DNA of 64,000 nucleotides from Chloroflexota bacterium. GTDB lineage: Bacteria > Chloroflexota > Limnocylindria > Limnocylindrales > Limnocylindraceae. The notes under the pieces are model-generated. The model worked only from the letters and a program-made list of their open reading frames with translations. It searched no databases and was not told the DNA's origin. The stretch lies in assembly GCA_026389555.1 (NCBI GenBank), contig JAPLHQ010000072.1, positions 23,215 to 87,214 on the forward strand, read 5' to 3'. The first letter of the stretch is position 1; each line of letters starts with the position of its first letter. Below are positions 35,493 to 54,844 of this stretch, in pieces. The position numbers were made by a program, and so were the translations under genes.

Positions 35493-36413
35493 ATGATCGT
35501 TCGATGTTCGTCCGAAGTTGCAGCAGCGCTCAGTGAGGGGCGTCCTGTTGTTGCGCTTGAGTCAACGATCACCTCAGCGCTCGGGCTCCCCGCTCCACAC
35601 AACCGCGATTGTTTTGACAGGGTTAACGCGGCGATTCGCGCGGAGGGTGCAGTCCCCGCACTCACCGGCCTCCTTGATGGCCAGCTCGTCGCTGGCGTAG
35701 AGCCTGGCGAAGAGGATCGGCTTCTTAACGCAACGCAGAAGCTTGCGGAGCGCGATCTTTACGGTGCGATGGCTGCGCGTCTCGGCGCTGGCGTCAGCAC
35801 CGTCTCAGCAACGGTCGCAATCGCCCATCTCGCTGGCATCCGCATCTTCGCCACAGGCGGCATTGGCGGCGTGCACCGCGGCGCGGAGCAGAGCTTTGAC
35901 GTCTCATCTGACCTTGGCGCCATGGCACGTCACCCAGTCGCCGTGGTGAGCGCTGGGGCGAAGGCCTTCCTTGATCTTGCCAAGACACTGGAAGTGCTCG
36001 AGACGCTCAGCGTTCCAGTGGTCGGCTATCAGACAGACGAGTTCCCCGCCTTCTGGAGTCGCAGTAGCGGGCTAAAGATTGCTCACCGTGTAGAGACACC
36101 AGACGCGATCGCCGCCACGATGAACGCGGCACGCGATGCAGGCTGGCCAGGAGGCCTCCTTATCGCCAACCCGATCCCTCGCGCCGACGAAATCCCATCT
36201 GCAGAGATTGCCGCCGCGATCGAAGAAGGCCTTGCCACTGCAGCGGCAGCCGGGGCAACCGGCCCAGCGGCAACTCCGCGCATCCTCGCCGCAATTGCCG
36301 CCGCGACGGCATCACGCTCGATTCCGGCGAATCTTGCACTCGCAGCGTCAAACGCATCGCTTGCGGCAAAGGTTGCCGTTGCGCTCTCGCGCATGAGCGG
36401 CGCTCGGAACTAG
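35493..36413 (+). CDS. psuG: pseudouridine-5'-phosphate glycosidase (IndA/PsuG family)
   Basis: RPVVALESTITSALGLPAPHN, IFATGGIGGVHRG and VVSAGAKAFLD, conserved PsuG blocks. Confidence 0.85.
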   Translation: MIVRCSSEVAAALSEGRPVVALESTITSALGLPAPHNRDCFDRVNAAIRAEGAVPALTGLLDGQLVAGVEPGEEDRLLNATQKLAERDLYGAMAARLGAGVSTVSATVAIAHLAGIRIFATGGIGGVHRGAEQSFDVSSDLGAMARHPVAVVSAGAKAFLDLAKTLEVLETLSVPVVGYQTDEFPAFWSRSSGLKIAHRVETPDAIAATMNAARDAGWPGGLLIANPIPRADEIPSAEIAAAIEEGLATAAAAGATGPAATPRILAAIAAATASRSIPANLALAASNASLAAKVAVALSRMSGARN

Positions 36414-36436
36414 CTTCTGAAACTAGTCGTCAAGAA

Positions 36437-37783
36437 CTAGGCGCTCGGCGCCGTTGCACTGTGTCGCGGTCCGCGGACGATCGAGAGCAGCGCCACCACC
36501 GCGATCAAGATCCCCACACCGAGGAGCGTATTCGTTGCGCCAATCGCATCGGCGATCGGTCCTACCGCAATAATCGGCGCAAAGCTGCCAAGGCTGACTA
36601 GCATGTTGAGCACGCCGAAGACACGCCCACGCACCTCCTCTGGCAACTCCTCTTGCAGCGCAGTCTGGGCTGGAATGGCGACGAGACCATAAGAGGCACC
36701 AGCAAAGTAGGCGACGAAGATCACGGTGGCGAGCGCTGATGCGCCACTGCCGATCGGAAGTCCGCCGAGCACGCTGGCGCCATCAGAGATCGCACGACTG
36801 ATCGGTTCGGCGAGCGCGAGGAGGGCGAGGCCGGCGCCAACACCGAGCAGCCCTCCTTCGATGAGTCGGCGGCGAGAGATTGCCTGCCCCCAACTGTTCA
36901 GCGCCAAGATTCCCGTGACCACACCAAGCCCAATCGGCAAGACGATCAACCAGAAGTCGCGAGCCTCAAGTCCGAGCGCATTCGCAACGTACTCTGGCCC
37001 GAGAACGCCCATTAGGCCAACGACGCTTGCGGCAATTGAAAGATAGGTGAGCGACCAGAGGACAGAGCCGTTCGCGCGGATGTAGCGCAGCCCCTCCATT
37101 AGTTCAGATGTTGTAGTCCGTGTCGTCTCCCGTGTTGAGGCGCGCAGGCCCTCTGCGTGTGCGGTGGGTGGCGCAGCCGGAAGGCCAATGCACAGGATTC
37201 CAGCGATCAGGAAGAGACCTGCAACGAACACGATGGCTGCCTCTGGTCCGGCGATGCGCACAACGGCGGGGCCGAGCAGTGCAAAGCCGAGCGCGAAGGC
37301 TGCATTCAGGGTGAAGGTGAAGAGTCCGTTTGCTGATGTGAGCTGATCTCTTCGGACGAGCAGCGGGATCATCGCAAGCTCCGCCGGCGCAAAGACCGTC
37401 GTCATGAAGCTCGCAAAGATGTTCAGCAGCATCACGGCCCCAAGCGAGTCGACGCTACCAAGCATCAGGAAGAAGGCGGCGGCGCGCGAAAGGTTCGCCA
37501 CGACCAAGACGAGTCGCTTATCGAGGCGATCCACCCAAACGCCAGAGATCGGCGAGAGGAGGACGGCGGGGACGAGGAAGCTCAAGAAGAGGAGGCTCAG
37601 CGCTGAGGTGGAGCTACTCCGCTCCGCAACAAGAACGGTGAGTCCGTAGAGGACGACGTTGCCGCCGATCTGCGTAAGGAGTTGGGCGATCCAGAGGCGC
37701 AGGAAGGCGCCGTTTCGCAGCACCCCCACATCTGGGGGCTGCTGGAAGTCAGGGATCTCCTTCTTTATCTGTGACTCGCTCAC
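36437..37783 (-). CDS. major facilitator superfamily transporter
   Basis: 448 aa with about 12 predicted TM helices and an MFS-like loop (VDRLDKRLVLV). Confidence 0.75.
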   Translation of the reverse strand: MSESQIKKEIPDFQQPPDVGVLRNGAFLRLWIAQLLTQIGGNVVLYGLTVLVAERSSSTSALSLLFLSFLVPAVLLSPISGVWVDRLDKRLVLVVANLSRAAAFFLMLGSVDSLGAVMLLNIFASFMTTVFAPAELAMIPLLVRRDQLTSANGLFTFTLNAAFALGFALLGPAVVRIAGPEAAIVFVAGLFLIAGILCIGLPAAPPTAHAEGLRASTRETTRTTTSELMEGLRYIRANGSVLWSLTYLSIAASVVGLMGVLGPEYVANALGLEARDFWLIVLPIGLGVVTGILALNSWGQAISRRRLIEGGLLGVGAGLALLALAEPISRAISDGASVLGGLPIGSGASALATVIFVAYFAGASYGLVAIPAQTALQEELPEEVRGRVFGVLNMLVSLGSFAPIIAVGPIADAIGATNTLLGVGILIAVVALLSIVRGPRHSATAPSA

Positions 37784-37808
37784 GCTGCCTCCATCCTGCC
37801 GCTTCCTC

Positions 37809-37884
37809 TGGTGCCCCCGGCCGGAATCGAACCGACGACGCCCGCCTTAGGACGGCGGCGCTCTATCCACTGAGCTACGGGGGC
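37809..37884 (-). tRNA. tRNA-Arg (anticodon CCU)
   Basis: Reverse complement GCCCCCGTAGCTCAGTGGATAGAGCGCCGCCGTCCTAAGGCGGGCGTCGTCGGTTCGATTCCGGCCGGGGGCACCA. Acceptor stem GCCCCCG/CGGGGGC; anticodon stem CCGCC/GGCGG with loop GUCCUAA (CCU). Encoded CCA. Confidence 0.85.
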
Positions 37885-37926
37885 CCGTCAAGATGGTAGC
37901 CCAGCGCCGCGTGGGAGAATACGGGG

Positions 37927-38196
37927 ATGGAGACGCGCAGCATCACCCTCTACAGTCGGCCCGAGTGCGAACTCTGCGTGGAGGCCCTTGCAGCCCTCCG
38001 CCAGATTGTGGCCGCCTCCCCCACCCCGCTCGTCATTAGCGAGATCAATGTCGAGGGGGATCCAGCGCTGCATCAACGCCTCCTCACGGAGATCCCTGCC
38101 GTTGAATACGGGGGTCAACTCCTCTCGCATGCAACGAGTCAGATGCGCATTGCAACGTTTATCGCCAAGGTTGATGACACGGTGCAGCATGTCTGA
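37927..38196 (+). CDS. glutaredoxin-like/thioredoxin-fold small protein (CxxC)
   Basis: 89 aa; ITLYSRPECELCVEA (CxxC in a thioredoxin-fold context). Stop overlaps the ccdA ATG (ATGTCTGA). Confidence 0.6.
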   Translation: METRSITLYSRPECELCVEALAALRQIVAASPTPLVISEINVEGDPALHQRLLTEIPAVEYGGQLLSHATSQMRIATFIAKVDDTVQHV

Positions 38197-38881: not shown

Positions 38882-38884
38882 TAC

Positions 38885-39505: not shown

Positions 39506-39540
39506 CGAAGTCGGACAGCGAGGGCTATGCGCTACACGCC

Positions 39541-40401: not shown

Positions 40402-40404
40402 CCC

Positions 40405-42561: not shown

Positions 42562-42570
42562 GCGCTGATC

Positions 42571-43929
42571 CTAGCCGTTTGGCGCGGTGATGCGACGTGA
42601 TGCGCGCGGAAGTGGATGCAGCTCAATCACTTCGCCAGCGGCGTACTCAGCAATCTCTTCTGGCACGACCCCCAAATAGTCGGTCCGCGCCAGCACTGAG
42701 ACCTGATGGCTCCCCTGCTCGCCTGCCAGTCGTACCCGTACGCGACCTAATGGATCGTGCAGCGATGCGCCGTCTTCGTCGCGGAGTGCAGCGAGGCGAA
42801 GGAAGGAGCGCCTCCCGAGCGGACTCTCGACGCGCTCCTCAAGCAGTCCAACAGCTCGTAGCCCGCGTGCCGGTCGTCCGCAGAGCGCCCGAAGGAGTGG
42901 GAGCGCAACCTCAACGCCTACGACAAACGCACTCACCGGATTCCCAGGGAGGCCGATCGCCCAGAGTGCGCCATCGCCGCCAGCGCGCCGTCGACCGAGG
43001 AGGAGTGGCTTCCCGGGTTGAATTGCAAGGCGCCAGACGACGAGCTCAAAGGTCGTTGCGAGCGCTGCACCAACATGATCGTGCGCGCCCACGCTGACTC
43101 CTCCTGTTGTCACCAGCAGGTCAGCCTGCGCGGCGAGCGCGGCAACGACCGCACCGGTTGCCTCGGCCGTATCACCAACATGTGCACGCGCAACGACCTC
43201 GCCTCCTTCCGCAGCAATGAGTGCGGCGAGAGCGGGGCCATTACTGTCGCGAATCCCTCCATCAGCCGCGTCGTTGAGTAGTTCATCACCCGTTGTCAGC
43301 AGTGCAACCCTTGGTCGCCGCACAAGGGAGAGATCCGCTGCACCACTCGAAAAGATGACGGCGAGCAGCCCAGCATCAATCGTCGCACCGGCTTCAGCGA
43401 GAAGACTCCCCACGCGCTGATCCTCGCCGCGTCGGCGAATGTGCGCACCGACTTTGACGCGACCGCTCACCCATACATGCGCTGGAAGCTGCGCTGGGAC
43501 GCGCTGCAGTCGTACTCCGCCGCGATCTGGATCCGCGATGCTGCTCCGCTCCACAGGGATCACTGTTGTGCCACCTTCTGGAATTGGTGCGCCAGTAGCA
43601 ATGCGCTGACACTCTCCATCGCGCAGCGGCGCGGCACTTAGTGCGCGACCTGCAGCCGCATCTCCAACGCAGGCGAGTCGCCGCGGCGCGCCGCTGGACG
43701 CTCCATCCCCATCAGCCAACGTCGTAACCCAGCCATCCATTGCCGAAACATCAAACGGGGGGTGATCAACAGCCGCGTAGAGCGGTTCGGCGAGCGTCCG
43801 CCCGATCAGCGAGGCGGCTGTCTCATCACTAATAGCGATTCGCTCCGCAGGGAGCGGCGTGACCTGCGCCAAGAGACGGGCAAGAAGATCGTCAATGCGC
43901 TCAAGCTCCGCTGGAACCGGCTCGCTCAC
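42571..43929 (-). CDS. moeA: molybdopterin molybdenumtransferase MoeA
   Basis: ...VTPLPAERIAISDETAASLIGRTLAEPLYAAVDHPPFDVSAMDGWV and a GGVSVGAHD MoCF-binding domain. The track start at 44001 overlaps the upstream gene. Alignment to the MoeA N-terminus puts the true start near 43917-43929. Confidence 0.88.
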   Translation of the reverse strand: MSEPVPAELERIDDLLARLLAQVTPLPAERIAISDETAASLIGRTLAEPLYAAVDHPPFDVSAMDGWVTTLADGDGASSGAPRRLACVGDAAAGRALSAAPLRDGECQRIATGAPIPEGGTTVIPVERSSIADPDRGGVRLQRVPAQLPAHVWVSGRVKVGAHIRRRGEDQRVGSLLAEAGATIDAGLLAVIFSSGAADLSLVRRPRVALLTTGDELLNDAADGGIRDSNGPALAALIAAEGGEVVARAHVGDTAEATGAVVAALAAQADLLVTTGGVSVGAHDHVGAALATTFELVVWRLAIQPGKPLLLGRRRAGGDGALWAIGLPGNPVSAFVVGVEVALPLLRALCGRPARGLRAVGLLEERVESPLGRRSFLRLAALRDEDGASLHDPLGRVRVRLAGEQGSHQVSVLARTDYLGVVPEEIAEYAAGEVIELHPLPRASRRITAPNG

Positions 43930-45470
43930 TGAAGGCTCTGGAGCAGAAGGATTGAGGCGACCGCTCCGAGCGGTGCGTTGAGCCAGAGGAATCGGCGCCA
44001 TGCAGCACGGGCCGCCCCCCAGCTTGGCCTCCCACGGAGAAGTGGGAGCACCGAGCAGCCGCTTGCGATCGGAATAGCCGCAGCGAGCTGCATCAGCAGG
44101 TTGGGCTGAGCAAGGAGTGGTAGTGCGGCGAGCAGATAGACGAGCAGAATCATCTGCGGGGTACGGCGCTCCCCAAGCAGTGTTGCGACTGTGGCAATCC
44201 CGCTTCGCTTGTCAGCCGACACGTCTTGCAGCGCGCCAAGCGCATGGCTCGCAACGCCCCAGAGCGCAAGGGCCAGAAGTGGCGCGATCCACGCTGAATC
44301 CAACGTGACGCCGAGGAGGAGCCCTGCGGCCGGCGGGATCAGAAAATGTATTGAGGAGACAGCCGAGTCAAGCAGTGGAACCGCACGCGCCCGCACAAGC
44401 CAGGGAGCGCTGTAGAGCGTTGCAAAGAGGATCGCAATCAGCGGCAGAAGGTTCGCCGGCGCAGGGAGGGCGATCGCCATAATCAGCGCCGGCACCAGTC
44501 CCGCCGCCACGAGCGCAACGCGAAGCGGGGCAAGGTCGCGGCCGCGAAGGAGCGCACCCTCCGCACCACCCTTGCGCGGATTTGCCGCGTCACTGGCACG
44601 GTCGTAGAGATCATTGATGCCGTAGAGGTAGAGGTTGTACCCAGCTCCCCACCAGAGGATCGGAGCAAGCAGCCATCCGCCGAGCGTCTCTCCAGCACCG
44701 GCGGCGAGCACACCTCCAACGAATGGGAGCGCGGTGTTTACCCACGAGATTGGCCGCGCAGCGAGGAAGATCCTCCATGCGCTCCCCTCCCCTAGCAGCA
44801 CCTCTGCACGCAAGCGCAACGCCACACCTGCGAGCCCAACGGCATAAAGCAGATCCTCGACTGGCGCTGCGCCAAGCAAGACGCCACTACGTGGCTCCCC
44901 TGGATACGTCAGCACTCCTAGGTGGCAGAGCACGTTATCGAAGATCAGTGTCAACACGATGAAGACGAACGCAGCGACGCGAGTACCGTGATCGCGCCGT
45001 AGTAGTTGCGCGGCAAGCGCCACCCCCGCTCCGGCAAGCACCCCAGCCGCAACGCTGTATTCAGCGCCACTCAAGAGCGCCAGCAGCAACCCGCCACTCA
45101 GTGCGCCAATGCAGGCATCGAACACGCCGCGAGGAAGACCGAGCGTTACGCCGCTGGAAACTCTCCCCTTCCCAACAGCATCAGCAACAACCACAAGAAG
45201 TGATGTGATGCCGAAGAGGAGGAGTGGCTCTTCAATAGGAAACCCGCGACCGAGAGGGCCAGCGCCAGGGAGGGAGAGCACCGTTGCGCTAGAAGGTGTC
45301 GCAAACCACCCTCGAGCGAGCCCAAGTGTATCCACGAGCAGAAACCCAATCGTCGTTGCAATCACAACCGGAAGTAGCACCTCGCGTCGCGTCTGCCGAC
45401 TCCAGCGCAGCGCAAGGCCACGGATGCCAACGATCGAGCCGATGATTGAAAGCAGATAGAGCGCGCTCAT
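43926..45470 (-). CDS. membrane fusion protein: N-terminal lycopene-cyclase-domain half (CrtYc/Yd-like) + C-terminal UbiA-family prenyltransferase (lycopene elongase-like)
   Basis: N-terminal 110 aa has three TM helices and GFPIEEPLLLFGITSLL (PxEE-xxF cyclase-domain signature). C-terminus has YGINDLYDRASDAANPRKGG (NDxxDxxxD), ALQDVSADKRSGIATVA (DxxxD..G..T) and multiple TM helices. Confidence 0.6.
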   Translation of the reverse strand: MSALYLLSIIGSIVGIRGLALRWSRQTRREVLLPVVIATTIGFLLVDTLGLARGWFATPSSATVLSLPGAGPLGRGFPIEEPLLLFGITSLLVVVADAVGKGRVSSGVTLGLPRGVFDACIGALSGGLLLALLSGAEYSVAAGVLAGAGVALAAQLLRRDHGTRVAAFVFIVLTLIFDNVLCHLGVLTYPGEPRSGVLLGAAPVEDLLYAVGLAGVALRLRAEVLLGEGSAWRIFLAARPISWVNTALPFVGGVLAAGAGETLGGWLLAPILWWGAGYNLYLYGINDLYDRASDAANPRKGGAEGALLRGRDLAPLRVALVAAGLVPALIMAIALPAPANLLPLIAILFATLYSAPWLVRARAVPLLDSAVSSIHFLIPPAAGLLLGVTLDSAWIAPLLALALWGVASHALGALQDVSADKRSGIATVATLLGERRTPQMILLVYLLAALPLLAQPNLLMQLAAAIPIASGCSVLPLLRGRPSWGAARAAWRRFLWLNAPLGAVASILLLQSLQ

Positions 45471-46217
45471 CTATCGCCTCCGTCGTCGTGCGGCACGGAA
45501 GCCGGCCGCCGCGGTAACGACGAGCACAGCACAGAATCCAATCGCCGCCGCCACCCAGAAGGTTTCGGGGTAGAGCTGCACCAGACGATCCGTTGCGGGA
45601 TTAAATGTCCAGGTCCCTGCTGGGAAGAGCAGCTGATGTGCTGCGGTGAACGTTGCATCAAAGGCGAAGAGGAAGGCGCCTCCAACGAGCGCAGCTCCCG
45701 CGCCAAGCAGCACCGCTCCATCGCGAACCCCTTGCAGCGCCCATCGCCTTCGTCGCACGGCGAGCAGAGAGAGGAGAGCAAACGCACCTGCGCCGACCAG
45801 AACGAGCGCACGAAAGAGGACGCCAACATCTACAAGATGTGAGCGTTCAGCAGCGCTCAAGAAGACGTCGTCGCCCAGTTGTGCGTTAAAGGCTCCACCG
45901 AAGAGGAGATCGCGTACGAGCGCATCAGAGAGCGCATACGCAGTCGGTGGTTCAACTCCGAGAAGGGCGGGGGCGCTCGAAAGGTCGAGCAGCGCATGGA
46001 CGACGGGTGGAAGAAGGAAGAGGAGCAGCGTGAGAGCGAGCAGCGCAACCAGCACCACAACGGCCAGCAGCGCTCGCCGCGCGACGCGGCGCAACGCGTT
46101 CACGCGTCGACGAGGACGCGACCCTGCTCCCACCATGACCTGACTGAGAGCGGATCTGGCGCAACTCGTCCGAGCAGGACTGCCGCTCGTGTTACCGCAG
46201 CCTGGAAGTCTCCCCAC
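45471..46217 (-). CDS. DUF1461/TIGR01906-type integral membrane protein (Lit-like, lipoprotein intramolecular transacylase family)
   Basis: TM helix; DLSSAPALLGVEP; FLSAAERSHLVDVGVLF (E..H..DV motif I associate with DUF1461/Lit); a further TM block. Start codon is GTG per the track and the N-terminus is uncertain. Stop abuts the start of the downstream fusion gene. Confidence 0.45.
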   Translation of the reverse strand: MGRLPGCGNTSGSPARTSCARSALSQVMVGAGSRPRRRVNALRRVARRALLAVVVLVALLALTLLLFLLPPVVHALLDLSSAPALLGVEPPTAYALSDALVRDLLFGGAFNAQLGDDVFLSAAERSHLVDVGVLFRALVLVGAGAFALLSLLAVRRRRWALQGVRDGAVLLGAGAALVGGAFLFAFDATFTAAHQLLFPAGTWTFNPATDRLVQLYPETFWVAAAIGFCAVLVVTAAAGFRAARRRRR

Positions 46218-46528
46218 TCGCTCTCCGCGAGTGCCTGAATCCCGGGGTAGCCCGCCGCTGCGAGCAGCTGATGTTCGGATGGGCCGAAGAAGGCGAGATT
46301 CAGGAGCAGTGCCTCATCTCGCCACTCGCCAACATCGGCAAGGGAGGCGTCGGTCTGGTCGGCAAGGGTCTGGCGACGTGTTGGGGTCTCGCTCCGTTCA
46401 AGGAGGAGGCCCGTTGTGAAGATCCCCTGCGCCTCAAGGCGCGCGAGGTGGACCGGCTCGATGCGTGTGAGCTGAACGATCGCTGGCATCAGTACCTCCT
46501 CGCGGCATCGTAGCGCCTCCCCCCTCAC
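46100..46528 (-). CDS. DUF4332 domain protein (tandem HhH-like motifs)
   Basis: LTRIEPVHLARLEAQGIFTTGLLLERSETPTRRQTLADQTDASLADVGEWRDEALLLNLAFFGPSEHQLLAAAGYPGIQALAE fits the DUF4332 two-repeat pattern. Probable start is Met at 46489. Confidence 0.5.
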   Translation of the reverse strand: MRGEALRCREEVLMPAIVQLTRIEPVHLARLEAQGIFTTGLLLERSETPTRRQTLADQTDASLADVGEWRDEALLLNLAFFGPSEHQLLAAAGYPGIQALAESEWGDFQAAVTRAAVLLGRVAPDPLSVRSWWEQGRVLVDA

Positions 46529-46541
46529 AGGCGTGCCGAGG

Positions 46542-46570
46542 CAGGCTCAATTGTTACAAACAACAGCCTG
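46542..46570. promoter_or_regulatory. imperfect palindrome/candidate operator in the divergent promoter region between the DUF4332 operon and the rhodopsin gene
   Basis: CAGGCT-CAA-TTGTT-ACA-AACAA-C-AGCCTG (outer 6-bp and inner 5-bp inverted repeats). A -10-like CATAAT lies at 46614-46619. RBS AGGGAGGG at 46653-46660, 3 nt before the ATG. Confidence 0.35.
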
Positions 46571-46663
46571 CGCAACCCCCGTAGCGGCTAGTGAATCTTT
46601 CGGTCATTTGCGCCATAATCGCCCCAGCGGTGCGTTGTGCCGCCAAAAGGTTAGGGAGGGTCA

Positions 46664-47407
46664 ATGAGTCCAGAGTTGGGATATCAGTTGGTCTATAACT
46701 TTATGTCCCTCGCCATCGCGGCGATGGGTGCGAGCTTCTTCTTCTTCGTCTCCGCAAGGGGATCGCTGAAGGAAGGGAACCGCATGGCAGTCACGCTGTC
46801 AGCCACTGTTGTGCTGATCGCGTTCTACCACTACGTCCGCATCTTCGACTCGTGGGTCGCCACGGCGGGTGTCGGAAACCCAGGCGCGTTCAACGAGGGC
46901 TACCGCTACGTTGACTGGCTCCTCACGGTGCCACTCCTCGTCGCAGAGCTGATCCTCGTCCTTCGCTTGGACAAGAAGGTTGAGAGCAAGCTGATCCAGC
47001 GAAACGTGCTCTACGCCTTCCTCATGATCGCAACCGGATACATCGGCGAGTTGGATGTCCAGACCTCCGTGGTTCTTGACTCCTCACGCACGATCTGGGG
47101 CGCTATCAGCACGATCTTCTTCGTCCTGATCTTGCGCGACCTCTTCGGTGGGATTGATGCTTCCTTCAAGAAGCAGAGCAAGGAGATCCAGGGGATCTTC
47201 AAGGTACTCCGCGTTGTGCTTATCGCCACGTGGGGTGTCTATCCAATCGCCTATCTCCTTCCAACGATTTCGACCAGCCTCGGCCTGACGGCTGGGGACG
47301 GGCTCGTGCTGAAGCAGATCGGTTACACGATTGCGGACATCCTGGCGAAGCCAGGCTACGGTCTCCTCATCTGGAAGATCGCAACCCTGAAGAACTCAGG
47401 CCGCTAA
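46664..47407 (+). CDS. type-1 microbial rhodopsin, proteorhodopsin/xanthorhodopsin-like outward proton pump (DTE motif)
   Basis: 247 aa, 7 TM. Helix C RYVDWLLTVPLLVAE gives D84/T88/E95 (BR D85/T89/D96 positions). L at the PR-105 tuning position. His56 in AFYHYV (PR His75 equivalent). Helix F ATWGVYPIAY. Helix G TIADILAKPGYGLLIW with counterion D225 and Schiff-base K229. Strong RBS. GC about 56 % against about 68 % in the flanks. Confidence 0.9.
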   Translation: MSPELGYQLVYNFMSLAIAAMGASFFFFVSARGSLKEGNRMAVTLSATVVLIAFYHYVRIFDSWVATAGVGNPGAFNEGYRYVDWLLTVPLLVAELILVLRLDKKVESKLIQRNVLYAFLMIATGYIGELDVQTSVVLDSSRTIWGAISTIFFVLILRDLFGGIDASFKKQSKEIQGIFKVLRVVLIATWGVYPIAYLLPTISTSLGLTAGDGLVLKQIGYTIADILAKPGYGLLIWKIATLKNSGR

Positions 47408-47418: not shown

Positions 47419-47468
47419 ACGCGACTCGTGTCGCGTAGAAAAGGCCCGGGGGAAACCCCGGGCCTTTT
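47419..47468. terminator. tandem hairpins; bidirectional rho-independent terminator between rhodopsin (+) and tRNA-Pro (-)
   Basis: Hairpin 1 is ACGCGAC-tcgt-GTCGCGT (47419-47436). Hairpin 2 is GGCCCGGGG-GAAA-CCCCGGGCC (47443-47464), flanked by AAAA on the 5' side and TTTT on the 3' side. Confidence 0.75.
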
Positions 47469-47482
47469 CATATCTTGTGATC

Positions 47483-48632: not shown

Positions 48633-50065
48633 CGAGAGCCGCCTCCGGTGCGGCCGCCGCCCTTGCCACGCTCACGACCCTCTTCGGCGGAGCGCTCGCG
48701 CACCACGATCCGGATTGGCGTGCCGTTGAGCGGGTAGCGCTCACGAATCTGATTCTCAAGGAAGCGCTGCCAGCTGAAGTGCACCTGCGCTGCGTTGCGG
48801 GCGAAGAGGACGAAGGTGGGGGGCGGCGTGGCCGCCTGTGCCGCGTAAAGAATCTTCGGTCGCTTACTGCCGCTATGCACCGGCCCCTGCCGAGCGACCG
48901 CCTCGGCGACAAGGCGATTCAACGCGCCTGTTGGGATGCGCAGCTGCCGCGCGTCGGCCGCCGCAATCGCCGCATCAAGCACCTTCGTGGCGCGAAGTCC
49001 GGTCAGCGCAGAGATGGAGACGATCGTCGCAAAGTCAAGGAAGGGCGCCTGGCGGCGAATCAGGCCCATCGCCGTATCAAAGGTGAAGCCGTCCTTATCG
49101 ACCAGGTCCCACTTGTTCATCACAATGACAAGCCCCTTACCAGCGTCGATCACCGAGCCCGCAACATGAAGGTCCTGCGCCTGGAGTCCTGTTGATGCGT
49201 CAATGATCAGCAGGGCCACATCGGCGCGATCAAGTGCGGCGACTGAACGGACGGTGGCGTACTTCTCTGCAACAGGCCCAGAGGCGATCTTGCCACGACG
49301 CTTGATCCCCGCCGTGTCAACGAGTGTGATGTGCCGACCGGCATGTTCAATCTGGTCGTCAATCGCGTCGCGCGTCGTTCCTGGCACATCGCTCACCACC
49401 GTCCGCTCCTCACCGAGGAGCTGGTTCAAGAGGCTCGACTTACCAACGTTAGGGCGGCCAACAATCGCAACCGTTACCTCACCCTCACGTGTCTGCACGC
49501 CGCTATCCGCGGGGAGGCCGCGCAGGCTCTCAATGAGTACGTCGAGCAGGTCGCCCGAGCCGATCCCGTGCTGCGCGCTGACTGGATAAATCGCATCAAA
49601 ACCGAGCGAGGCAAACTCGTGCGAGGCACGCTCGCGATCAATGTTGTCTGCCTTGTTCGCGGCGAGCAGGATCGGCTTCCCGCTCTTGCGCAGCAGTAGC
49701 GCCACCTCGGCGTCGCCTGGGTTTGGGCCGGTTGCAGCATCCACAACTAGGATGATGAGATCGGCGTTTGTTACTGCCATCCGCGCCTGATCCTGTACCG
49801 CAACGTCAATCACGTCTCCCTGCGACGGCTGCATCCCGCCAGTGTCAACGAGACGGAAGCGGAAGCCGTTCCAGTCAGCGATCGCAATCAGTCGGTCACG
49901 TGTTGTTCCTGCGCGATCCTCCACCACGGCGCGGCGCTCGCCAACGAATCGATTGAAGAGCGTACTCTTCCCAACGTTCGGCCGACCGACCAGTGCAACC
50001 AGCGGCAGTCGCTCCTGCGTGATCTCTTCCACCGCGCTCCCAGCGCGTTCCGAGCGCCGGGTCAC
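48629..50065 (-). CDS. der: ribosome-biogenesis GTPase Der (EngA), tandem G-domains + KH-like C-terminus
   Basis: LVALVGRPNVGKSTLFNR and a second P-loop VAIVGRPNVGKSSLLNQL; C-terminal KH-like domain. Confidence 0.93.
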   Translation of the reverse strand: MTRRSERAGSAVEEITQERLPLVALVGRPNVGKSTLFNRFVGERRAVVEDRAGTTRDRLIAIADWNGFRFRLVDTGGMQPSQGDVIDVAVQDQARMAVTNADLIILVVDAATGPNPGDAEVALLLRKSGKPILLAANKADNIDRERASHEFASLGFDAIYPVSAQHGIGSGDLLDVLIESLRGLPADSGVQTREGEVTVAIVGRPNVGKSSLLNQLLGEERTVVSDVPGTTRDAIDDQIEHAGRHITLVDTAGIKRRGKIASGPVAEKYATVRSVAALDRADVALLIIDASTGLQAQDLHVAGSVIDAGKGLVIVMNKWDLVDKDGFTFDTAMGLIRRQAPFLDFATIVSISALTGLRATKVLDAAIAAADARQLRIPTGALNRLVAEAVARQGPVHSGSKRPKILYAAQAATPPPTFVLFARNAAQVHFSWQRFLENQIRERYPLNGTPIRIVVRERSAEEGRERGKGGGRTGGGSR

Positions 50066-51075
50066 GAGGCGTCCGAAGTGCTCAGCGATGTGGTGCGGTA
50101 CTGGGGCGTTGCCGCGGCTGCGAGCGCCTCATGCGCAATCTCCGCCGCCTTCGCCTTCATCCCCTCCGTGCCAGCAAGCTGAGCAATGGTTCGCACGACC
50201 ACCTCAAGGTCTTCAATCGGGGTGCTCGTGCCACCAGTTACCCCCACGCGCTTCACGCCAGCAAACTGCGCCGCATCGGTGAGCTCCTTCGCAGATTCAA
50301 TCTGCACTGCACGCGTCCCATTGATCTCGCAGAGTCGCGTCAGCTCTTTCGTATTGGCGCTCTTGCTCCCGCCAACAACGACCATCAGGTCAACCGCTCG
50401 CGCCGCCTCCAGTGTGTCCTCTTGACGACGGATGGTGACGGGGCAGACGGTGTTGACTACTTTGAGCTCGTGACAGCGTGAGACCATGAAGGCGGCGAGA
50501 CGCTCAAACTTCCATGGCGGTTGCGTTGACTGCGTGATCAGCGCCATCCGCTTTCGGCGCGGGATCTTGACCCAGTCCTCCTCTTCGTCAACAAGGATCG
50601 CGTCCGGCGCGAACCCAAGAAGCCCCACAACTTCCGGGTGGTTCGGCGTTCCAAGGAGGACGATGTCGTACCCCTCATCCACCAGCTTCGCCAGTTCACG
50701 ATGCTCCTGCACCACCCAGGTGCAGGTCCCATCAATCACCTCAAGGCCACGACTTACTGCACGTTCCAGCACTTCAGGGGTAACGCCATGCGCGCGGATC
50801 ACCACCGCCGCACCCTCCTGCACCTGATCGAGGCTCTCAACGTTCTCAATGCCGCGCTGATGCAGGTCAGCAATCAGTCCCTCGTTGTGCACCACGTGGC
50901 CGAGCGTATGGGTCGCCTTCCCCTCCGCACTCGCAAGCTTCGCCTTGTCAATCGCCTCGCGGACGCCATAGCAGACGCCAGTGCGGCGGGCGATACTGAT
51001 GCTCTCAACGCTTCCCATGCGGCGATTATCCCCTAGTCGGCTCTCGGAGTCCCAGCCACGCATCAGACGGCGCAC
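50062..51075 (-). CDS. ispH: 4-hydroxy-3-methylbut-2-enyl diphosphate reductase (IspH/LytB)
   Basis: ISIARRTGVCYGVREAI, GHVVHNEGL, VIRAHGVTPEV, IDGTCTWV (Cys ligands). Probable true start is the internal Met near 51018. Confidence 0.9.
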   Translation of the reverse strand: MRRLMRGWDSESRLGDNRRMGSVESISIARRTGVCYGVREAIDKAKLASAEGKATHTLGHVVHNEGLIADLHQRGIENVESLDQVQEGAAVVIRAHGVTPEVLERAVSRGLEVIDGTCTWVVQEHRELAKLVDEGYDIVLLGTPNHPEVVGLLGFAPDAILVDEEEDWVKIPRRKRMALITQSTQPPWKFERLAAFMVSRCHELKVVNTVCPVTIRRQEDTLEAARAVDLMVVVGGSKSANTKELTRLCEINGTRAVQIESAKELTDAAQFAGVKRVGVTGGTSTPIEDLEVVVRTIAQLAGTEGMKAKAAEIAHEALAAAATPQYRTTSLSTSDAS

Positions 51076-51115
51076 AGGAGGCTCCCTGAGCCCCCGGCAG
51101 GGACGAAACCTGCGG

Positions 51116-51769: not shown

Positions 51770-51776
51770 CTGCGCG

Positions 51777-52463
51777 CTAGCGACGAACCTGGCGCACGAT
51801 CAGATCTACCACGTCGGTAAGTCCAAGATCGTCGGTCAGAATGACCTGCGCATCGTCGGCGGCGCGAAGTGGCGCAACGGCTCGCGTGCGATCCTCCTGA
51901 TCACGTGCCGCAAGGCTCCGCAGCGCCTCATGGTGTTCAGCTGATCCCGCCGCATACCCACGCTGTAGCGCCCGACGCAGCGCCCTCGCCTCAGCAGATG
52001 CGTCAAGGAAGAACTTATGGCGCGCCTCCGGGTAGACGACCGTCCCAATATCTCGACCGGCCAAGACCACACCGCCGCGCATCGCAATCTCGCGTTGAAT
52101 CGTGCGCAGTGCGGCACGCACATCTGCGAGCGCAGCAACAGTGGCAACCGCGCGCTCAACCGCCTCGCTCTCAAGCTCGCTCGCAGCAAAGTTTCGATCA
52201 TCAACAATGATTGAGGCACCGCCGCTCTCAAGGTCTACATCGGTAAGGTGCGCGAGCTGTACCACCTGATCAATCTGTGCCGAGCTCAACGTCTCAGTGC
52301 TGGCCAAAGTTTCGAACCGCGCGCCAGCGTCGAGCGCTGCGCGCGTGACGGCGCGATAGAGCAGCCCAGTATCAAGAAAGCCGTAGCCGAGCTCCGCGGC
52401 AACGCGTGTGCCGACACTGCTCTTCCCGCTTGAGGCGGGCCCATCAATTGCAACCTGTGTCAT
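51777..52463 (-). CDS. cmk: cytidylate kinase
   Basis: MTQVAIDGPASSGKSSVGTRVAAELGYGFLDTGLLYRAVT. Confidence 0.93.
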   Translation of the reverse strand: MTQVAIDGPASSGKSSVGTRVAAELGYGFLDTGLLYRAVTRAALDAGARFETLASTETLSSAQIDQVVQLAHLTDVDLESGGASIIVDDRNFAASELESEAVERAVATVAALADVRAALRTIQREIAMRGGVVLAGRDIGTVVYPEARHKFFLDASAEARALRRALQRGYAAGSAEHHEALRSLAARDQEDRTRAVAPLRAADDAQVILTDDLGLTDVVDLIVRQVRR

Positions 52464-52475
52464 GGCCGTACTCGC

Positions 52476-53414
52476 TCAGCCTGCAGCGCGGCTGCCAACC
52501 GCAAGGAGGATGCTGCCGAGCTCACTACGCTCGTCTGCCTCAAGCGGCCGTGATGCGCCAACCTGGATGCCCGCCAGATGGACGGGGCCAAAGGAGATGC
52601 GGATCAGGCGGCGGACCGGTCGGCCAATCGCACCGTAGAGGCGGCGAACCTCATGATGGCGCCCTTCGCCGAGTGCGATGTAGCTCCACTGTGCGGGATC
52701 GGACCCGTCATCAAGCACATCCGCTGGGAGTTGGTCTTCTGGTCGAATGTCGCGCGCATCAAGCGCATGCGCCCAGCCATCTGTCAGGCGAATGCCGGCG
52801 CGGAGTCGTGTCTGCTCTGCGTGACCGAGCGGCTGGTCACACATCACCGCGTACCCGCGCTGCAGCCCAGCGCGTGGATGTGCAATTGGTGAGACGAGTC
52901 GGCGCTCTGGCGTCAGTAGGAGCAGCCCCTCGCTTTCGCGGTCGAGCCGGCCGATAGAAAGCATGCGTGTCGCACGCTCTTCGCCAAAGAGTGGCGCCAG
53001 CGCCTGCGGCAGCGTGATCTCAGCGTGTGGATCGGCGTGTGTGGTGGTCACCCCCCACGGCTTATGCCAGGCGAGAAGTTCGGCGCCACCGAGTGGATCG
53101 CTCGTATCTACTGTAGTTGCGCTACGAGCCTGCAGCGCCTGCCCGTCAAGTTCAAGCGGTGTTGAGGGCTCAAAGCGCTCGCCGAGCTCTACCTTGCGCC
53201 CAGCACTCGTGACACGCTGCGCGGCGATCGCGGCGTCTGCGCCGCGGCGGGAGAGCCCAGAGCGTTCGGCAACGAGAACGTTGACGCGGATGAGGTCAGT
53301 CAGCGAGTGCTCCTTCGCCAGCTGGCGAACTTGGCCCCTCGTCGTCCGTATCTGCGGCCCCGCCACTCCCTGGCGCTTCGCTGACGAGCTGCAGGTGGAG
53401 GAGTGATTCAGCAT
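52476..53414 (-). CDS. rluB: RluB/RsuA-family rRNA pseudouridine synthase (S4 + PseudoU_synth_2)
   Basis: S4 domain (RVNVLVAERSGLSRRGADAAIAAQRVT), catalytic region (SIGRLDRESEGLLLLT; Asp in GRLD) and LIRISFGPVHL. The N-terminus overlaps the scpB end, so the true start is uncertain. Confidence 0.85.
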   Translation of the reverse strand: MLNHSSTCSSSAKRQGVAGPQIRTTRGQVRQLAKEHSLTDLIRVNVLVAERSGLSRRGADAAIAAQRVTSAGRKVELGERFEPSTPLELDGQALQARSATTVDTSDPLGGAELLAWHKPWGVTTTHADPHAEITLPQALAPLFGEERATRMLSIGRLDRESEGLLLLTPERRLVSPIAHPRAGLQRGYAVMCDQPLGHAEQTRLRAGIRLTDGWAHALDARDIRPEDQLPADVLDDGSDPAQWSYIALGEGRHHEVRRLYGAIGRPVRRLIRISFGPVHLAGIQVGASRPLEADERSELGSILLAVGSRAAG

Positions 53415-53955
53415 CTCCCTCGAGCGCCGGAAGGTCGGTCAGTGAAGAGAGTCCAAACTTGCGCAAGAACTCGAGCGTTGTTGCGTAACGGTGTGGGCGT
53501 CCAGCAGTCTCAAGACGATCAACCTCTTCAATGAGGCCGCGCTCTAGCAAGACACGAAGACCGTAATCGGCATCAACGCCGCGGATCTCCTCAATCCCCG
53601 CCTTCGTCACCGGTTGGCGGTAGGCAATCACGGTGAGAGTCTCTAGTGGGGCGGCGGTCATGTCAGAACCGCCAGTGCCGATCCATGCCAGCACGGCGCG
53701 CGCCTGCTCTGGGCCACTCGTCAGCTGCAGCTCATCGCCGTGCGTCAACAGGGTGATCCCGCGACTGGTGAGGCTTTTCTGTAGTTCCGTGACTAGTCGG
53801 TCGAACGCGGCGCGATCCGCCTCGAGCAGCTTCGCCGCCTCCTTGCGCGTCAGAGGACGATCAACGACGAATAGGAGTGCCTCAAGGTCCGCGGCGGTTG
53901 CGGGGTGCGTACGCTCAGGGAGGTTCACCTTCGCCTGGCGCTTCTCGTCGCTCAT
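53296..53955 (-). CDS. scpB: segregation and condensation protein B
   Basis: LEALLFVVDRPLTRKEAAKLL and a second winged-helix (AYRQPVTKAGIEEIRGVDA). Confidence 0.9.
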   Translation of the reverse strand: MSDEKRQAKVNLPERTHPATAADLEALLFVVDRPLTRKEAAKLLEADRAAFDRLVTELQKSLTSRGITLLTHGDELQLTSGPEQARAVLAWIGTGGSDMTAAPLETLTVIAYRQPVTKAGIEEIRGVDADYGLRVLLERGLIEEVDRLETAGRPHRYATTLEFLRKFGLSSLTDLPALEGDAESLLHLQLVSEAPGSGGAADTDDEGPSSPAGEGALAD

Positions 53956-53986
53956 CGCTCCCCCTCTTGCATAGGTCGCTCGCTCG

Positions 53987-54844
53987 CTATGCGCTCGCGC
54001 GCTCGGTAATGATGATCGGTCCCCAGAGAGTCTGCTGGCTCACCTCAACCTCGTGGCGCTTTGAGAGTTCCAGGAGGGCGAGGAAGGTCACCGCAATGAA
54101 CGAACGATCCTTACGGCCGCCGAGGAGTGTCTCCAGGTCAACGCCAACAAGTCCGTTGAGCCGCACCGCTTCGCGGATCGCCGCGAGCCGGTCACCAATA
54201 GAAACCTTCAGGCCGACTGGCACCATCGCCAGCGCGGCGAGTGGGCGCCGACGAGCGGCAATCCTCGACATCGCGCGAGCGAGTCGACGCGGGTCGGACT
54301 GCACCGGGACGAGTGGCTCAGTGAAGACCGGTTTCGGCTGCGGCAGGAGGCGTGTCGGCTGCTCACGCTGCCAGAGCGGCATCAGCATGCGATCGCCGAG
54401 CACGCGCGCAGCATCGCGGAAGACGCGATAGCGCACCAGTCGCGCACGCAGATCGACTGCGTCATCAGCATCATCAAGATCGTTCGCCTCAAGCACCGCT
54501 GCGGCGATCGGTCGTGGCAGGAGGGCGCGACTCTTCAACACGATCAGCTGCGCCGCAACCGAGACGAACGCTGAGAGCGTCTCTAGGCGATCGTCTGGGA
54601 TCTCCGCGAAGAAGCGGAGGAACTCGTCGGCGAACGGTGCAAGCGGAACGCGGCAGACATCAAGTTCGTCGCGCTCGATGAGCGCCAGGAGGAGACCGTA
54701 CGGGCCGCTGAATTCACCGAGCGCCACATAGGAGCGGGTGCGACCGAAGAGGCCACCCTGCTCGCGGCGGAAGACGACCCCCTCAATATCGGCAACGGCG
54801 GGATCCGGAAGTTCAAACCCCTCTGCAATCACCGAACGGTTCAT
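53987..54844 (-). CDS. scpA: segregation and condensation protein A (kleisin)
   Basis: FSGPYGLLLALIERDELDVCRVPLAPFADEFLRF and an ScpA C-terminal winged-helix. Confidence 0.9.
   Translation of the reverse strand: MNRSVIAEGFELPDPAVADIEGVVFRREQGGLFGRTRSYVALGEFSGPYGLLLALIERDELDVCRVPLAPFADEFLRFFAEIPDDRLETLSAFVSVAAQLIVLKSRALLPRPIAAAVLEANDLDDADDAVDLRARLVRYRVFRDAARVLGDRMLMPLWQREQPTRLLPQPKPVFTEPLVPVQSDPRRLARAMSRIAARRRPLAALAMVPVGLKVSIGDRLAAIREAVRLNGLVGVDLETLLGGRKDRSFIAVTFLALLELSKRHEVEVSQQTLWGPIIITERASA

Follow-up and report, generated by a model that had tools for sequence, protein, structure and literature searches.

A predicted xanthorhodopsin-type proton pump without linked retinal-forming genes is paired with a putative C50-carotenoid cyclase–elongase fusion in Limnocylindraceae

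How does a rhodopsin obtain its pigments when neither a retinal-forming oxygenase nor a carotenoid backbone gene lies beside it? This question is raised by a 64-kb stretch of DNA (hereafter the window) from Candidatus Limnocylindrus (Chloroflexota), a lake bacterium of very high abundance with genomes of about 1.3 Mb. Genome reduction is pronounced in the Limnocylindraceae (median size 1.3 Mb): six amino-acid pathways are missing, and the cells depend on outside metabolites (PMC13212565). Confident families were assigned to genes over 95.8% of the window, and they bear out an earlier note on this DNA, which had described the neighbours of the rhodopsin as housekeeping genes: MFS, CcdA, TlpA, MBL, Dcd, NrdR, MoaB, MoaC and MoeA lie upstream, and GpsA, Der, IspH, PlsC, Cmk, RluB and ScpB downstream.

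A Pfam scan of 60 ORFs spanning all 64 kb returned no match to PF15461 (BCD/Blh), PF03055 (RPE65/CCD; Diox1/ACO type), PF00494 (phytoene synthase), PF01593 (CrtI-type desaturase) or PF00348 (polyprenyl synthase), and no CrtY/CrtL-type cyclase. A local Blh HMM, built from three seeds of proteobacterial rhodopsin loci, each confirmed by PF15461, was run with --max on all six-frame ORFs of at least 50 aa; it gave zero matches in the window and picked up Blh in six proteobacterial loci. Because the longest stretch without a family assignment measures 268 bp, neither a blh (~280 aa) nor a CCD gene (~480 aa) can be hidden there. The earlier note had claimed that blh and carotenoid backbone genes are missing around the rhodopsin and had named a closer profile search of the window ORFs as the way in which a blh homologue could still emerge; that search found none, the absence holds over the full 64 kb and it is genuine. 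The same pattern extends to related loci. Cellulomonas CrtE, CrtB and CrtI, used as tblastn queries, had no match in 95 Limnocylindraceae loci (about ±10 kb each), and these queries did match proteobacterial loci and loci of distant UbiA homologues. Linked blh or crt genes were counted in 0/95 Limnocylindraceae loci, and no CCD gene was found in the window or in the 95 related loci. The sole carotenoid-like gene in the window is, as had been noted, a cyclase–UbiA fusion of 514 aa (43926-45470, minus strand).

The missing linked blh is in itself ordinary. Among comparator rhodopsin loci drawn from the same genome scan, crtI and/or blh adjoins the rhodopsin in seven of eight proteobacterial or other non-actinobacterial cases, as against 0/11 in Actinomycetota/Acidimicrobiia and 0/95 in Limnocylindraceae. 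Rhodopsins without linked blh or a crt cluster have already been described (PMC7734400, PMC12422013, bioRxiv 10.1101/2021.02.16.431466), are well documented for SAR86, CL500-11, Rhodoluna and Aurantimicrobium, and are nothing out of the ordinary beyond Proteobacteria and Bacteroidota. Aurantimicrobium minutum KNC, Rhodoluna lacicola, most Luna-1 genomes, CL500-11, SAR86 and MG-II share with Limnocylindrus a DTE/xanthorhodopsin-like pump with blh unlinked or missing, and Aurantimicrobium and Rhodoluna also possess crtYe/Yf and crtEb (PMC7734400, PMC12422013). In these two genera, however, the C50 genes are separate members of a crt cluster, with no report of their adjoining the rhodopsin, whereas in Limnocylindraceae they are fused and rhodopsin-adjacent; for Limnocylindrus, the observed blh absence covers the window and 95 loci. 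The canonical rhodopsin-crtEIBY-blh cluster (Sabehi et al. 2005 type), of which three examples were recovered (L058, L059 and L063, Blh confirmed by PF15461), likewise places the rhodopsin beside pigment-pathway genes, but every one of those genes is missing from the window and from all Limnocylindraceae loci. The sole pigment gene there belongs instead to the C5 elongation/C50 cyclisation branch, which competes with the β-carotene/retinal route of the canonical cluster.

The rhodopsin itself (46664..47407, plus strand; 247 aa; PF01036, E = 4e-40) is predicted to be a light-driven H+ pump of the xanthorhodopsin family. It carries the DTE motif (D84/T88/E95), the counter-ion partner H56, the green-tuning L92 and the Schiff-base K229, and its best solved relative is Salinibacter xanthorhodopsin (XR; 3DDL, 185 bits); these features together indicate an XR-family outward pump. 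Its WG pair aligns with XR W155-G156, placing G146 at the position of the fenestration glycine Gly156, for which a role in carotenoid binding has been described (bioRxiv 10.1101/2022.08.24.505090), so that the glycine fenestration, an opening for antenna carotenoids, is retained. Among 120 rhodopsin homologues, DTE is kept in 119, WG in 117 and the lysine in 119. The glycine at XR position 156, DTE and the green-tuning leucine are all common to this protein and the antenna-binding fenestrated rhodopsins, namely Salinibacter xanthorhodopsin, Gloeobacter rhodopsin and Kin4B8 (7YTB). The known antennas of such rhodopsins are C40 keto- or hydroxy-carotenoids supplied by unlinked genes or the environment; in the literature searched, neither a C45/C50 antenna nor a dedicated adjoining tailoring enzyme is described. 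An intrinsic-terminator-like hairpin with a 14-bp stem containing 10 G-C pairs (47438..47469, plus strand) directly follows the rhodopsin stop codon, implying a monocistronic unit.

Judged by its motifs and domains, the fusion is a single-chain CrtYe-CrtYf-CrtEb protein, that is, a predicted C50-carotenoid cyclase joined to a lycopene elongase, with its catalytic motifs intact. Residues 1-110 (45141..45470, minus strand) form a CrtYe-like first lycopene-cyclase-domain repeat, which reached no HMM threshold and was recognised by analogy with CrtYe in length and in the invariant P78-x-E80-E81, a PxEE motif comparable to the 'LPVEE' of CrtYe in the C50 cluster of Cellulomonas bogoriensis (L007; idi-crtE-crtB-crtI-crtYe-crtYf-crtEb). 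The CrtYf-like second repeat (residues about 135-230; 44781..45068, minus strand) carries invariant F177-D178-N179 and P203-x-E205-D206, is 44% identical to Cellulomonas CrtYf over 43 residues, and scores 19.9 bits against PF18916 (cutoff 27) and 33.5 bits against TIGR03462 (cutoff 39.4), a model for which the L002 orthologue reaches 40.2 bits. Residues 233-514 (43926..44774, minus strand) constitute a CrtEb-like UbiA prenyltransferase (PF01040, E = 3e-19) in which both Asp-rich motifs, N286-D287-xx-D290-xxx-D294 and D416-xxx-D420, are invariant. This domain is 42% identical to Cellulomonas CrtEb, the closest stand-alone UbiA homologue. Against NF009608 (PRK13105; cutoff 217 bits) the window fusion scores 200.2 bits and its orthologues 194 (L002), 188.5 (L040) and 221.7 (L004), compared with 455 bits for the genuine Cellulomonas CrtEb. 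Since the UbiA domain falls just under this cutoff and both cyclase repeats fall under theirs, the specificity of the fusion may have drifted. The AF2 model (pLDDT 88.8, pTM 0.88) displays a UbiA fold, with 4TQ3 and 4OD5 (AfUbiA, ApUbiA) as best matches, and dN/dS values of 0.11-0.13, resembling those of MoeA, denote purifying selection.

The three modules correspond to three proteins of the actinobacterial C50 branch, where CrtYe and CrtYf pair as a heterodimeric cyclase and CrtEb is the lycopene elongase, and their order, Ye-Yf-Eb, matches the Corynebacterium glutamicum-type C50 (decaprenoxanthin) pathway. With the Cellulomonas cluster the fusion shares the PxEE, FDN and PxED cyclase motifs, both Asp-rich UbiA motifs and NF009608 as best family; it differs in being one polypeptide, located outside a crtE-crtB-crtI operon, paired with a rhodopsin and scoring at or below curated cutoffs. 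Precedent for joining an elongase in-frame to one C50 cyclase subunit is found in LbtA/LbtBC of Dietzia sp. CQ4 (C.p.450 pathway), and the functions of CrtEb and CrtYe/Yf are likewise described (PMC6393565). LbtBC, however, contains one cyclase subunit only, still needs LbtA and lies in a crt cluster; an LbtBC-type identity was ruled out for the Limnocylindraceae protein, in which both cyclase repeats are fused and no separate partner gene exists. Similar di-fusions of 377-429 aa (P0196, P0197 and P0199) turned up in an exhaustive search and are closer to actinobacterial CrtEb.

The distribution of the fusion is exclusive. Full-length fusions form just four 50%-identity clusters among 1.84 billion representatives, all from Limnocylindraceae, and all four map to loci where a rhodopsin adjoins. 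Both genes are present in 73 of the 95 Limnocylindraceae loci, these 73 being the loci that span both, and wherever a locus among the 95 is long enough for the pair, neither gene is missing. Two arrangements occur. In type A (67 loci), fusion-Lit-DUF4332 faces the rhodopsin; in type B (six loci: L002, L003, L025, L040, L106 and L113), which lacks Lit and DUF4332, rhodopsin and fusion diverge directly from each other, their starts 132-592 bp apart, in two further genomic contexts that are related through a common multicopper oxidase. Linkage in most loci (67/73) could reflect vertical inheritance of one arrangement. The more distant UbiA homologues (L115-L145) nearly all adjoin crtI, crtB or crtE, which marks the UbiA subfamily of the fusion as carotenoid-dedicated; in contrast to these and to the Cellulomonas gene, the fusion lies in a crtE-B-I cluster in 0/95 loci. 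The suggestion that the fusion is an incidental leftover does not survive these results, given strict coupling to the rhodopsin in 73/73 informative loci, in two arrangements and at a dN/dS of about 0.12. As the one gene so strictly coupled to the rhodopsin across Limnocylindraceae, the fusion becomes the main lead on the pigment supply of the pump.

Rhodopsin and the DUF4332-Lit-fusion operon are separated by a divergent intergenic region of 135 bp (46529..46663), from which both transcription units are probably co-regulated. Within it, positions 46552-46558 carry TGTTACA, a conserved heptamer that may act as an operator for both units. Of 70 distinct upstream regions compared, 67 have this heptamer 101-146 nt before the rhodopsin ATG, mostly at -112 to -121; the window as a whole contains only two copies, and in Aquidulcis-type loci the heptamer forms the inverted repeat TGTTACA-N6-TGTAACA. 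The first gene of the divergent operon encodes a DUF4332 protein of 129-142 aa (46100..46528, minus strand; PF14229, E = 7e-12) with 72-99% identity across genera and a dN/dS of 0.02-0.10. It is followed by an integral membrane protein of the Lit/DUF1461 family (45471..46217, minus strand; PF07314, 64 bits; TIGR01906-like, 62 bits under a cutoff of 74.8), whose true start probably lies near 46103, giving ~210 aa, as called on Ga0620986_00054 (1.18 Mb; locus L001). Absent at type-B loci, Lit is probably a resident envelope gene and not part of a module with the rhodopsin.

We therefore tentatively propose, at a probability of roughly 40%, that Limnocylindraceae maintain a two-gene module in which a fenestrated, green-absorbing XR-type pump is accompanied by a C50-branch fusion that tailors its carotenoid. 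The UbiA domain would add DMAPP-derived C5 units to the ψ-ends of a C40 carotenoid (lycopene), and the two cyclase repeats would then close the rings to yield a hydroxylated cyclic C45/C50 carotenoid. In the membrane, the rhodopsin would use this product, most likely as a second (antenna or photoprotective) chromophore at the Gly146 fenestration, with the two transcription units probably co-regulated through their shared upstream region. The lycopene steps (crtE/B/I) and the retinal step are unlinked to the rhodopsin in this family; they would be encoded elsewhere in the ~1.3-Mb genome, or retinal would be taken from the lake. Against the proposal stands the absence of crtE, crtB and crtI from the 95 loci (about ±10 kb each), which leaves the source of the presumed lycopene to be accounted for, as do the scores below the HMM cutoffs and the possible vertical inheritance behind most of the linkage. 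Moreover, the antenna carotenoids bound by fenestrated rhodopsins bear 4-keto or 3-hydroxy C40 rings, and we know of no case in which a ring with a C5 substituent at C2 has been shown to fit a rhodopsin fenestration. An interplay between bacterioopsin and lycopene elongase (Lye) was reportedly described in Halobacterium salinarum by Dummer and colleagues in 2011. There too an opsin is said to be tied to a UbiA-type elongase at the lycopene branch between C50 carotenoids and retinal, but reportedly through post-translational inhibition, with unlinked genes and with brp/blh present, whereas the link in Limnocylindraceae is genomic and involves an elongase-cyclase fusion.

The earlier note had placed the retinal source elsewhere in the genome, in the environment or in an unconventional route, and these are the right options. 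The cells might be retinal auxotrophs, with no retinal-forming oxygenase in the genome and an opsin loaded with retinal, and perhaps xanthophylls, from other lake microbes; the fusion would then be unrelated to chromophore supply or act on scavenged carotenoids. Auxotrophy is documented or inferred in many rhodopsin holders (PMC7734400, PMC12422013), and Rhodoluna lacicola, acI-C and the majority of Luna-1 genomes are proposed cases; the lack of blh and CCD genes in the window and 95 related loci fits it, as do the reduced genomes (median 1.3 Mb), the six missing amino-acid pathways and the need for external metabolites (PMC13212565). Yet Aurantimicrobium, without blh, has endogenous retinal (PMC7734400), and here a streamlined genome has kept, opsin-adjacent in every lineage, a carotenoid enzyme of 514 aa on which purifying selection acts; such retention would be difficult to account for in a cell without carotenoid synthesis. 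Moreover, lycopene-type ψ-end carotenoids are, to our knowledge, not obvious pigments to scavenge from a lake. We regard auxotrophy as unlikely, if still a serious contender.

A blh-independent route through the fusion itself appears improbable. Elongation and cyclisation would provide a ring-bearing precursor from which a putative oxygenase frees retinal or a ring-substituted retinal, as Nakajima et al. suggested for Aurantimicrobium minutum, a retinal producer with crtYe/Yf and crtEb but neither blh nor diox1 (PMC7734400). Attractive in this respect is that blh, the most characteristic neighbour of DTE pumps in classical loci (bioRxiv 10.1101/2021.02.16.431466), has its usual place taken in Limnocylindraceae, without exception and exclusively, by the CrtYeYfEb fusion, in parallel with the blh-less, C50-gene-bearing Aurantimicrobium and Rhodoluna (PMC7734400), and that the fenestration exposes the region of the retinal ring (bioRxiv 10.1101/2022.08.24.505090). 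Cleaving a polyene is, however, beyond both UbiA prenyltransferases and CrtY-type cyclases, and no oxygenase candidate is linked in type A or type B; Ye/Yf-type cyclases yield C2-substituted ε/γ rings rather than the β-ionone ring of retinal (PMC6393565), and the retinal of Aurantimicrobium is the ordinary all-trans form (PMC7734400). Similarly little weight attaches to an ordinary but unlinked pathway, in which crtEBIY and blh lie elsewhere, the fusion supplies a C50 pigment for the membrane or for photoprotection, and adjacency is a historical accident: the two genes were acquired together and then passed down vertically in a compact genome. The single arrangement with the same flanking housekeeping genes in 67/73 loci is what such an accident would leave, and the nearest outside rhodopsins (Acidimicrobiia, 46-48% identity) likewise lack linked pigment genes; but the pair is kept without Lit and DUF4332 in the other contexts of all six type-B loci, no fusion-family cluster lies away from a rhodopsin, homologues elsewhere go with crt clusters and not with rhodopsins, and TGTTACA is conserved in the shared upstream region.

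The module of pump and tailoring enzyme remains our preferred reading, and under it the rhodopsin-adjacent fusion may explain how the pump of these abundant lake bacteria obtains its pigments.

The rhodopsin gene (46664-47407, + strand) encodes a 247-aa protein of the bacteriorhodopsin family (PF01036, E = 4e-40) and lies in a gene-dense window of 64 kb with about 63% G+C. The earlier note had claimed that neither a retinal-forming oxygenase (blh/brp) nor carotenoid backbone genes occur within about 10 kb on either side (36413-54000) and that the neighbours are housekeeping genes. A Pfam scan of sixty ORFs, covering the whole window, returned zero matches to PF15461 (Blh), PF03055 (CCD), PF00494, PF01593 and PF00348, and genes with a confident family assignment account for 95.8% of the window, the largest unassigned gap being 268 bp. 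A Blh profile HMM, built from three seed proteins that adjoin proteobacterial rhodopsins and were each confirmed as PF15461, gave no match at maximum sensitivity against all six-frame ORFs of at least 50 aa in the window; as a positive control, the same HMM recovered Blh in six proteobacterial loci. The six-frame search and the coverage calculation together rule out a blh concealed in another frame or in a small gap. Because the Pfam, coverage and HMM results agree, the absence is confirmed for 36413-54000 and holds for the entire 64 kb; the closer profile search found no blh homologue among the ORFs of the window.

The family assignments of the flanking ORFs likewise bear out the housekeeping character of the neighbourhood. 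The minus-strand genes upstream of the rhodopsin are DUF4332, Lit/DUF1461, a 514-aa protein combining a weak Lycopene_cyc match with UbiA (43926-45470, hereafter the fusion), MoeA, MoaC, MoaB, NrdR, Dcd and an MBL hydrolase, followed farther upstream by TlpA (+), CcdA (+) and an MFS transporter; downstream are GpsA, Der, IspH, PlsC, Cmk, RluB, ScpB, ScpA, XerD, RecN, NadK and Dxs. The remainder of the window is of the same kind (RecA, RuvABC, tRNA synthetases, FtsK, RNase J/Y and others), and the neighbourhoods of its first and last proteins add only further housekeeping genes (RuvX, YceG). The downstream genes include two of the MEP pathway, IspH (50062-51075) and Dxs (58429-60426), both within 12 kb of the rhodopsin; apart from them the gene string is housekeeping and Actinobacteria-like, and its synteny is kept in other Limnocylindraceae loci (L004, L148). 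IspH yields IPP and DMAPP, which the UbiA domain presumably uses as co-substrate. A 536-aa protein encoded at 9411-11021 (-), 35 kb from the rhodopsin and unlinked to it, joins an Rv3818-like SCP2 domain (PF25451) to a Rieske [2Fe-2S] domain at its C terminus; this uncharacterised architecture resembles a lipid-binding oxygenase.

A rhodopsin without linked blh is a known situation and not very unusual. Holders of rhodopsin that lack blh include SAR86, MG-II, CL500-11 Chloroflexi, Rhodoluna and Aurantimicrobium (Nakajima et al., PMC7734400), just 4-22% of Luna-1 genomes carry blh (2025 study, PMC12422013), and in Actinobacteria and Chloroflexi blh has only a "moderate presence" next to DTE pumps (Chazan et al., bioRxiv 10.1101/2021.02.16.431466). 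Of 8 proteobacterial-type loci in our genome scan, 7 have crtI and/or blh adjoining the rhodopsin, against 0 of 11 in Actinomycetota/Acidimicrobiia. The latter groups contain the rhodopsins most closely related to this one outside Limnocylindraceae (46-48% identity), and no blh, crt or fusion homologue was found within about 10 kb in their loci L045-L057, L061 and L064; an unlinked position therefore appears to be the norm for rhodopsins of that xanthorhodopsin branch. Retinal and carotenoid genes are not discussed in the available portions of the Limnocylindrus/Aquidulcis literature that we found (Mehrshad 2018, a 2026 Nat Commun article, the Aquidulcis preprint and supplements), and the listed entries of the supplement tables include no KO number for blh, crtB, crtI or lcyB.

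The rhodopsin itself carries the residues of a proton pump. Its top solved relative is Salinibacter xanthorhodopsin (XR; 3DDL, 185 bits), and it retains the DTE motif of proton pumps (D84/T88/E95), His56, Leu92 for green tuning and Lys229, the lysine of the Schiff base. Gly146 aligns with XR Gly156, the "fenestration" residue, which is required for carotenoid-antenna binding in XR and Kin4B8 (bioRxiv 10.1101/2022.08.24.505090). Of the best 120 homologues, 119 keep the DTE motif, 119 the Leu, 119 the Lys and 117 the Gly, and dN/dS values of 0.04-0.08 indicate very slow evolution. Identical or near-identical proteins, annotated at source as bacteriorhodopsin or xanthorhodopsin, come from Candidatus Limnocylindrus and Chloroflexota MAGs, one of them encoded on a JGI contig of 1.18 Mb whose genes are ordered as in the window. 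A strong terminator-like hairpin (47438-47469) lies 3' of the gene. The leader holds a short G+C-rich hairpin, GCGGTGCGTTGTGCCGC (46625-46645), immediately 5' of a GGGAGG ribosome-binding site; in other species it reads GCGGCGGAGAGAGGCCGC or GCGATCCGAAGAGGTCGC, the sequence varying and the stem pairing being preserved, and an Rfam search of the leader gave no match.

What the earlier note had dismissed as the only carotenoid-like neighbour does not deserve that dismissal: the fusion appears to be a family-specific, three-part C50-carotenoid enzyme that is strictly and exclusively coupled to the rhodopsin. Its C-terminal 280 residues form a UbiA prenyltransferase domain with both Asp-rich motifs, which among NCBIfam families scores highest on NF009608, with 200 bits where the cutoff is 217 (the L004 orthologue, at 222 bits, lies above it). 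The closest stand-alone homologues of this domain are actinobacterial "prenyltransferases" at 41-44% identity, and the Cellulomonas bogoriensis homologue resides in a textbook idi-crtE-crtB-crtI-crtYe-crtYf-crtEb cluster (L007). As this crt-cluster protein scores 455 bits on NF009608, the family can be identified as that of CrtEb lycopene elongases, of which the Limnocylindrus domain is, judged by sequence, a divergent member or near-member. The N-terminal part, at 230 residues, is as long as CrtYe (117 aa) plus CrtYf (113 aa), and the cyclase-type motifs P78-x-E-E and F177-D-N ... P203-x-E-D are invariant across the fusion family, the available HMMs detecting only the second cyclase repeat, at scores under their cutoffs. 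The length match, the motifs and the CrtEb-like domain therefore lead us to read the fusion as a single-chain CrtYe-CrtYf-CrtEb, in the same Ye-Yf-Eb order as the actinobacterial C50 genes but on one polypeptide. In the characterized systems, CrtEb elongates lycopene by C5 units to flavuxanthin, which CrtYe/Yf then cyclise to C50 carotenoids, and Dietzia LbtBC is a known two-part fusion (PMC6393565). The AlphaFold2 model of the fusion is confident (pLDDT 88.8, pTM 0.88), and its C-terminal half matches solved UbiA-family structures; a Foldseek search with the N-terminal cyclase half found no solved homologue, the UbiA half alone being matched. Since its dN/dS of 0.11-0.13 equals that of MoeA, the gene is considered functional.

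The coupling of the two genes was assessed in 95 Limnocylindraceae loci (together 1.12 Mb, with redundancy), comprising 37 Limnocylindrus/Aquidulcis loci from a GTDB scan with one genome per species, 49 additional loci from a JGI metagenome scan with the fusion alignment, the window and the context look-up loci L001-L006. Fusion and rhodopsin occur together in 73 of these loci, and none of the 95 holds one gene with enough flanking DNA but without the other. In 67 loci (type A) the arrangement is that of the window, a fusion-Lit-DUF4332 operon divergent from the rhodopsin with start codons about 1.2 kb apart; the other six (type B) are direct divergent pairs in other contexts, with 132-592 bp between start codons and without Lit/DUF4332. 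Beside more distant rhodopsins (83% identity), the fusion lies directly and divergently adjacent in quite different neighbourhoods (L002, L003). A multicopper oxidase near the pair in both type-B contexts, 47% identical between L002 and L003, shows that these two contexts are related. An exhaustive HMMER search of 1.84 billion cluster representatives recovered the full-length fusion in only four clusters, all four mapping to rhodopsin-adjacent loci. CrtE, CrtB and CrtI (tblastn) and Blh (HMM) gave no match in any of the 95 loci, and the more distant UbiA homologues from the same scan (L115-L145) lie nearly all immediately beside crtI, crtB or crtE. With the fusion gene linked to the rhodopsin and its distant homologues to crt genes, we infer that a carotenoid-cluster enzyme left its crt cluster and became a fixed rhodopsin partner in Limnocylindraceae only.

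Lit/DUF1461 (45471-46217), considered as a cryptic His-containing oxygenase, was rejected as an ordinary TIGR01906/PF07314 member; for this reason, and because it is absent from type-B pairs, it was kept out of the module. In type-B1 loci the genes 3' of the rhodopsin encode DUF1761, a P450 of generic type and a 632-aa protein that begins with a UbiA domain and continues into a long C-terminal extension of no known family (L003 5624-9195; L040 4711-5139; L025 2713-3141). The P450 is CYP107/109-like rather than CYP175A1-like, and a search with the 632-aa protein gave no informative solved relative. At L003 3175-4425 the fusion is called as only 416 aa. As a run of N lies near the rhodopsin upstream region, the shortening probably reflects a gap in the assembly and not a two-part form found in nature; L040, of the same lineage, has the full 514-aa gene. 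L035 (CAMAXG010000001.1), a GTDB/ENA MAG entered under the title 'Thermoflexus hugenholtzii JAD2 isolate MH-08apr19-222', an organism name that looks wrong, contains a typical Aquidulcis-type fusion-Lit-DUF4332-rhodopsin-GpsA locus.

The heptamer TGTTACA occurs in 67 of 70 distinct rhodopsin upstream regions (loci L001-L114), 101-146 nt 5' of the ATG and mostly at -112 to -121. The window contains two occurrences in all, one at 46552-46558, inside the shared divergent region and 24 nt from the DUF4332 start. In Aquidulcis-type loci it is one arm of a perfect inverted repeat (TGTTACA-N6-TGTAACA), after which comes another, GTTGCGA-N12-TCGCAAC, and in type-B2 loci it falls within the first codons of the fusion gene. 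As a lead only, TGTTACA is a candidate operator in a promoter region common to the rhodopsin and the DUF4332-Lit-fusion operon. The layout also suggests that DUF4332, Lit, fusion and MoeA are tightly packed and translationally coupled. The longest ORFs overlap by 76 nt for MoeA/fusion (43926-44001) and 118 nt for Lit/DUF4332 (46100-46217); gene calls on the 1.18-Mb contig have later starts and 4-nt overlaps.

The best-supported reading, to which we assign a probability of roughly 0.4, is that the locus combines a pump with a carotenoid-tailoring module whose product serves the rhodopsin. From a C40 carotenoid with psi-ends the fusion would make a hydroxylated C45/C50 carotenoid with rings, which may act as antenna or photoprotectant for the fenestrated rhodopsin, the lycopene-forming genes and the retinal source being unlinked to it. 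Against this reading stand the lack of a demonstrated lycopene source (no CrtE/B/I in the 95 loci) and, to our knowledge, the lack of any precedent for a C2-substituted ring docking in the fenestration. Retinal auxotrophy in a strongly reduced genome is somewhat unlikely; Limnocylindraceae genomes have a median size of 1.3 Mb at 63% G+C, lack six amino-acid pathways and have acquired proton-pumping rhodopsins (PMC13212565). A blh-independent route to the chromophore through the fusion, as hypothesised for Aurantimicrobium, is improbable in our estimate, and we give just as little credence to a plain historical linkage, in which the two genes would stay together without functional coupling. These readings are set apart mainly by what the rest of the genome holds. 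A bolder proposal, doubtful at present, sees in the fusion the missing gene for pigment supply in a rhodopsin photosystem that works without blh, providing either a native C45/C50 antenna or a chromophore precursor through the retinal pathway postulated for Aurantimicrobium.

The absence of linked blh and crt genes is thus true and already a known situation; what is new here is a three-part C50 enzyme coupled to a xanthorhodopsin, its constituent parts being known. If the canonical genes are present elsewhere in the genome, this is one more unlinked rhodopsin beside an unusual but conventional pigment gene. The module, two genes with about 2.3 kb of coding sequence, is a compact and testable lead bearing on two open questions, namely pigment and retinal supply in blh-less phototrophs and the natural antenna of freshwater xanthorhodopsins. 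If the antenna option is true, this would be the first antenna of C50 type, made by a tailoring enzyme that is dedicated to it and inherited together with the pump; if either option is true, an undescribed two-gene pigment module would exist in a lineage that ranks with the most abundant bacteria of fresh water, Limnocylindrus being among the most abundant freshwater bacterioplankton. Should the pump depend on its C50-type neighbour, estimates of rhodopsin phototrophy in lakes and the gene list of the "rhodopsin photosystem" would need revision.
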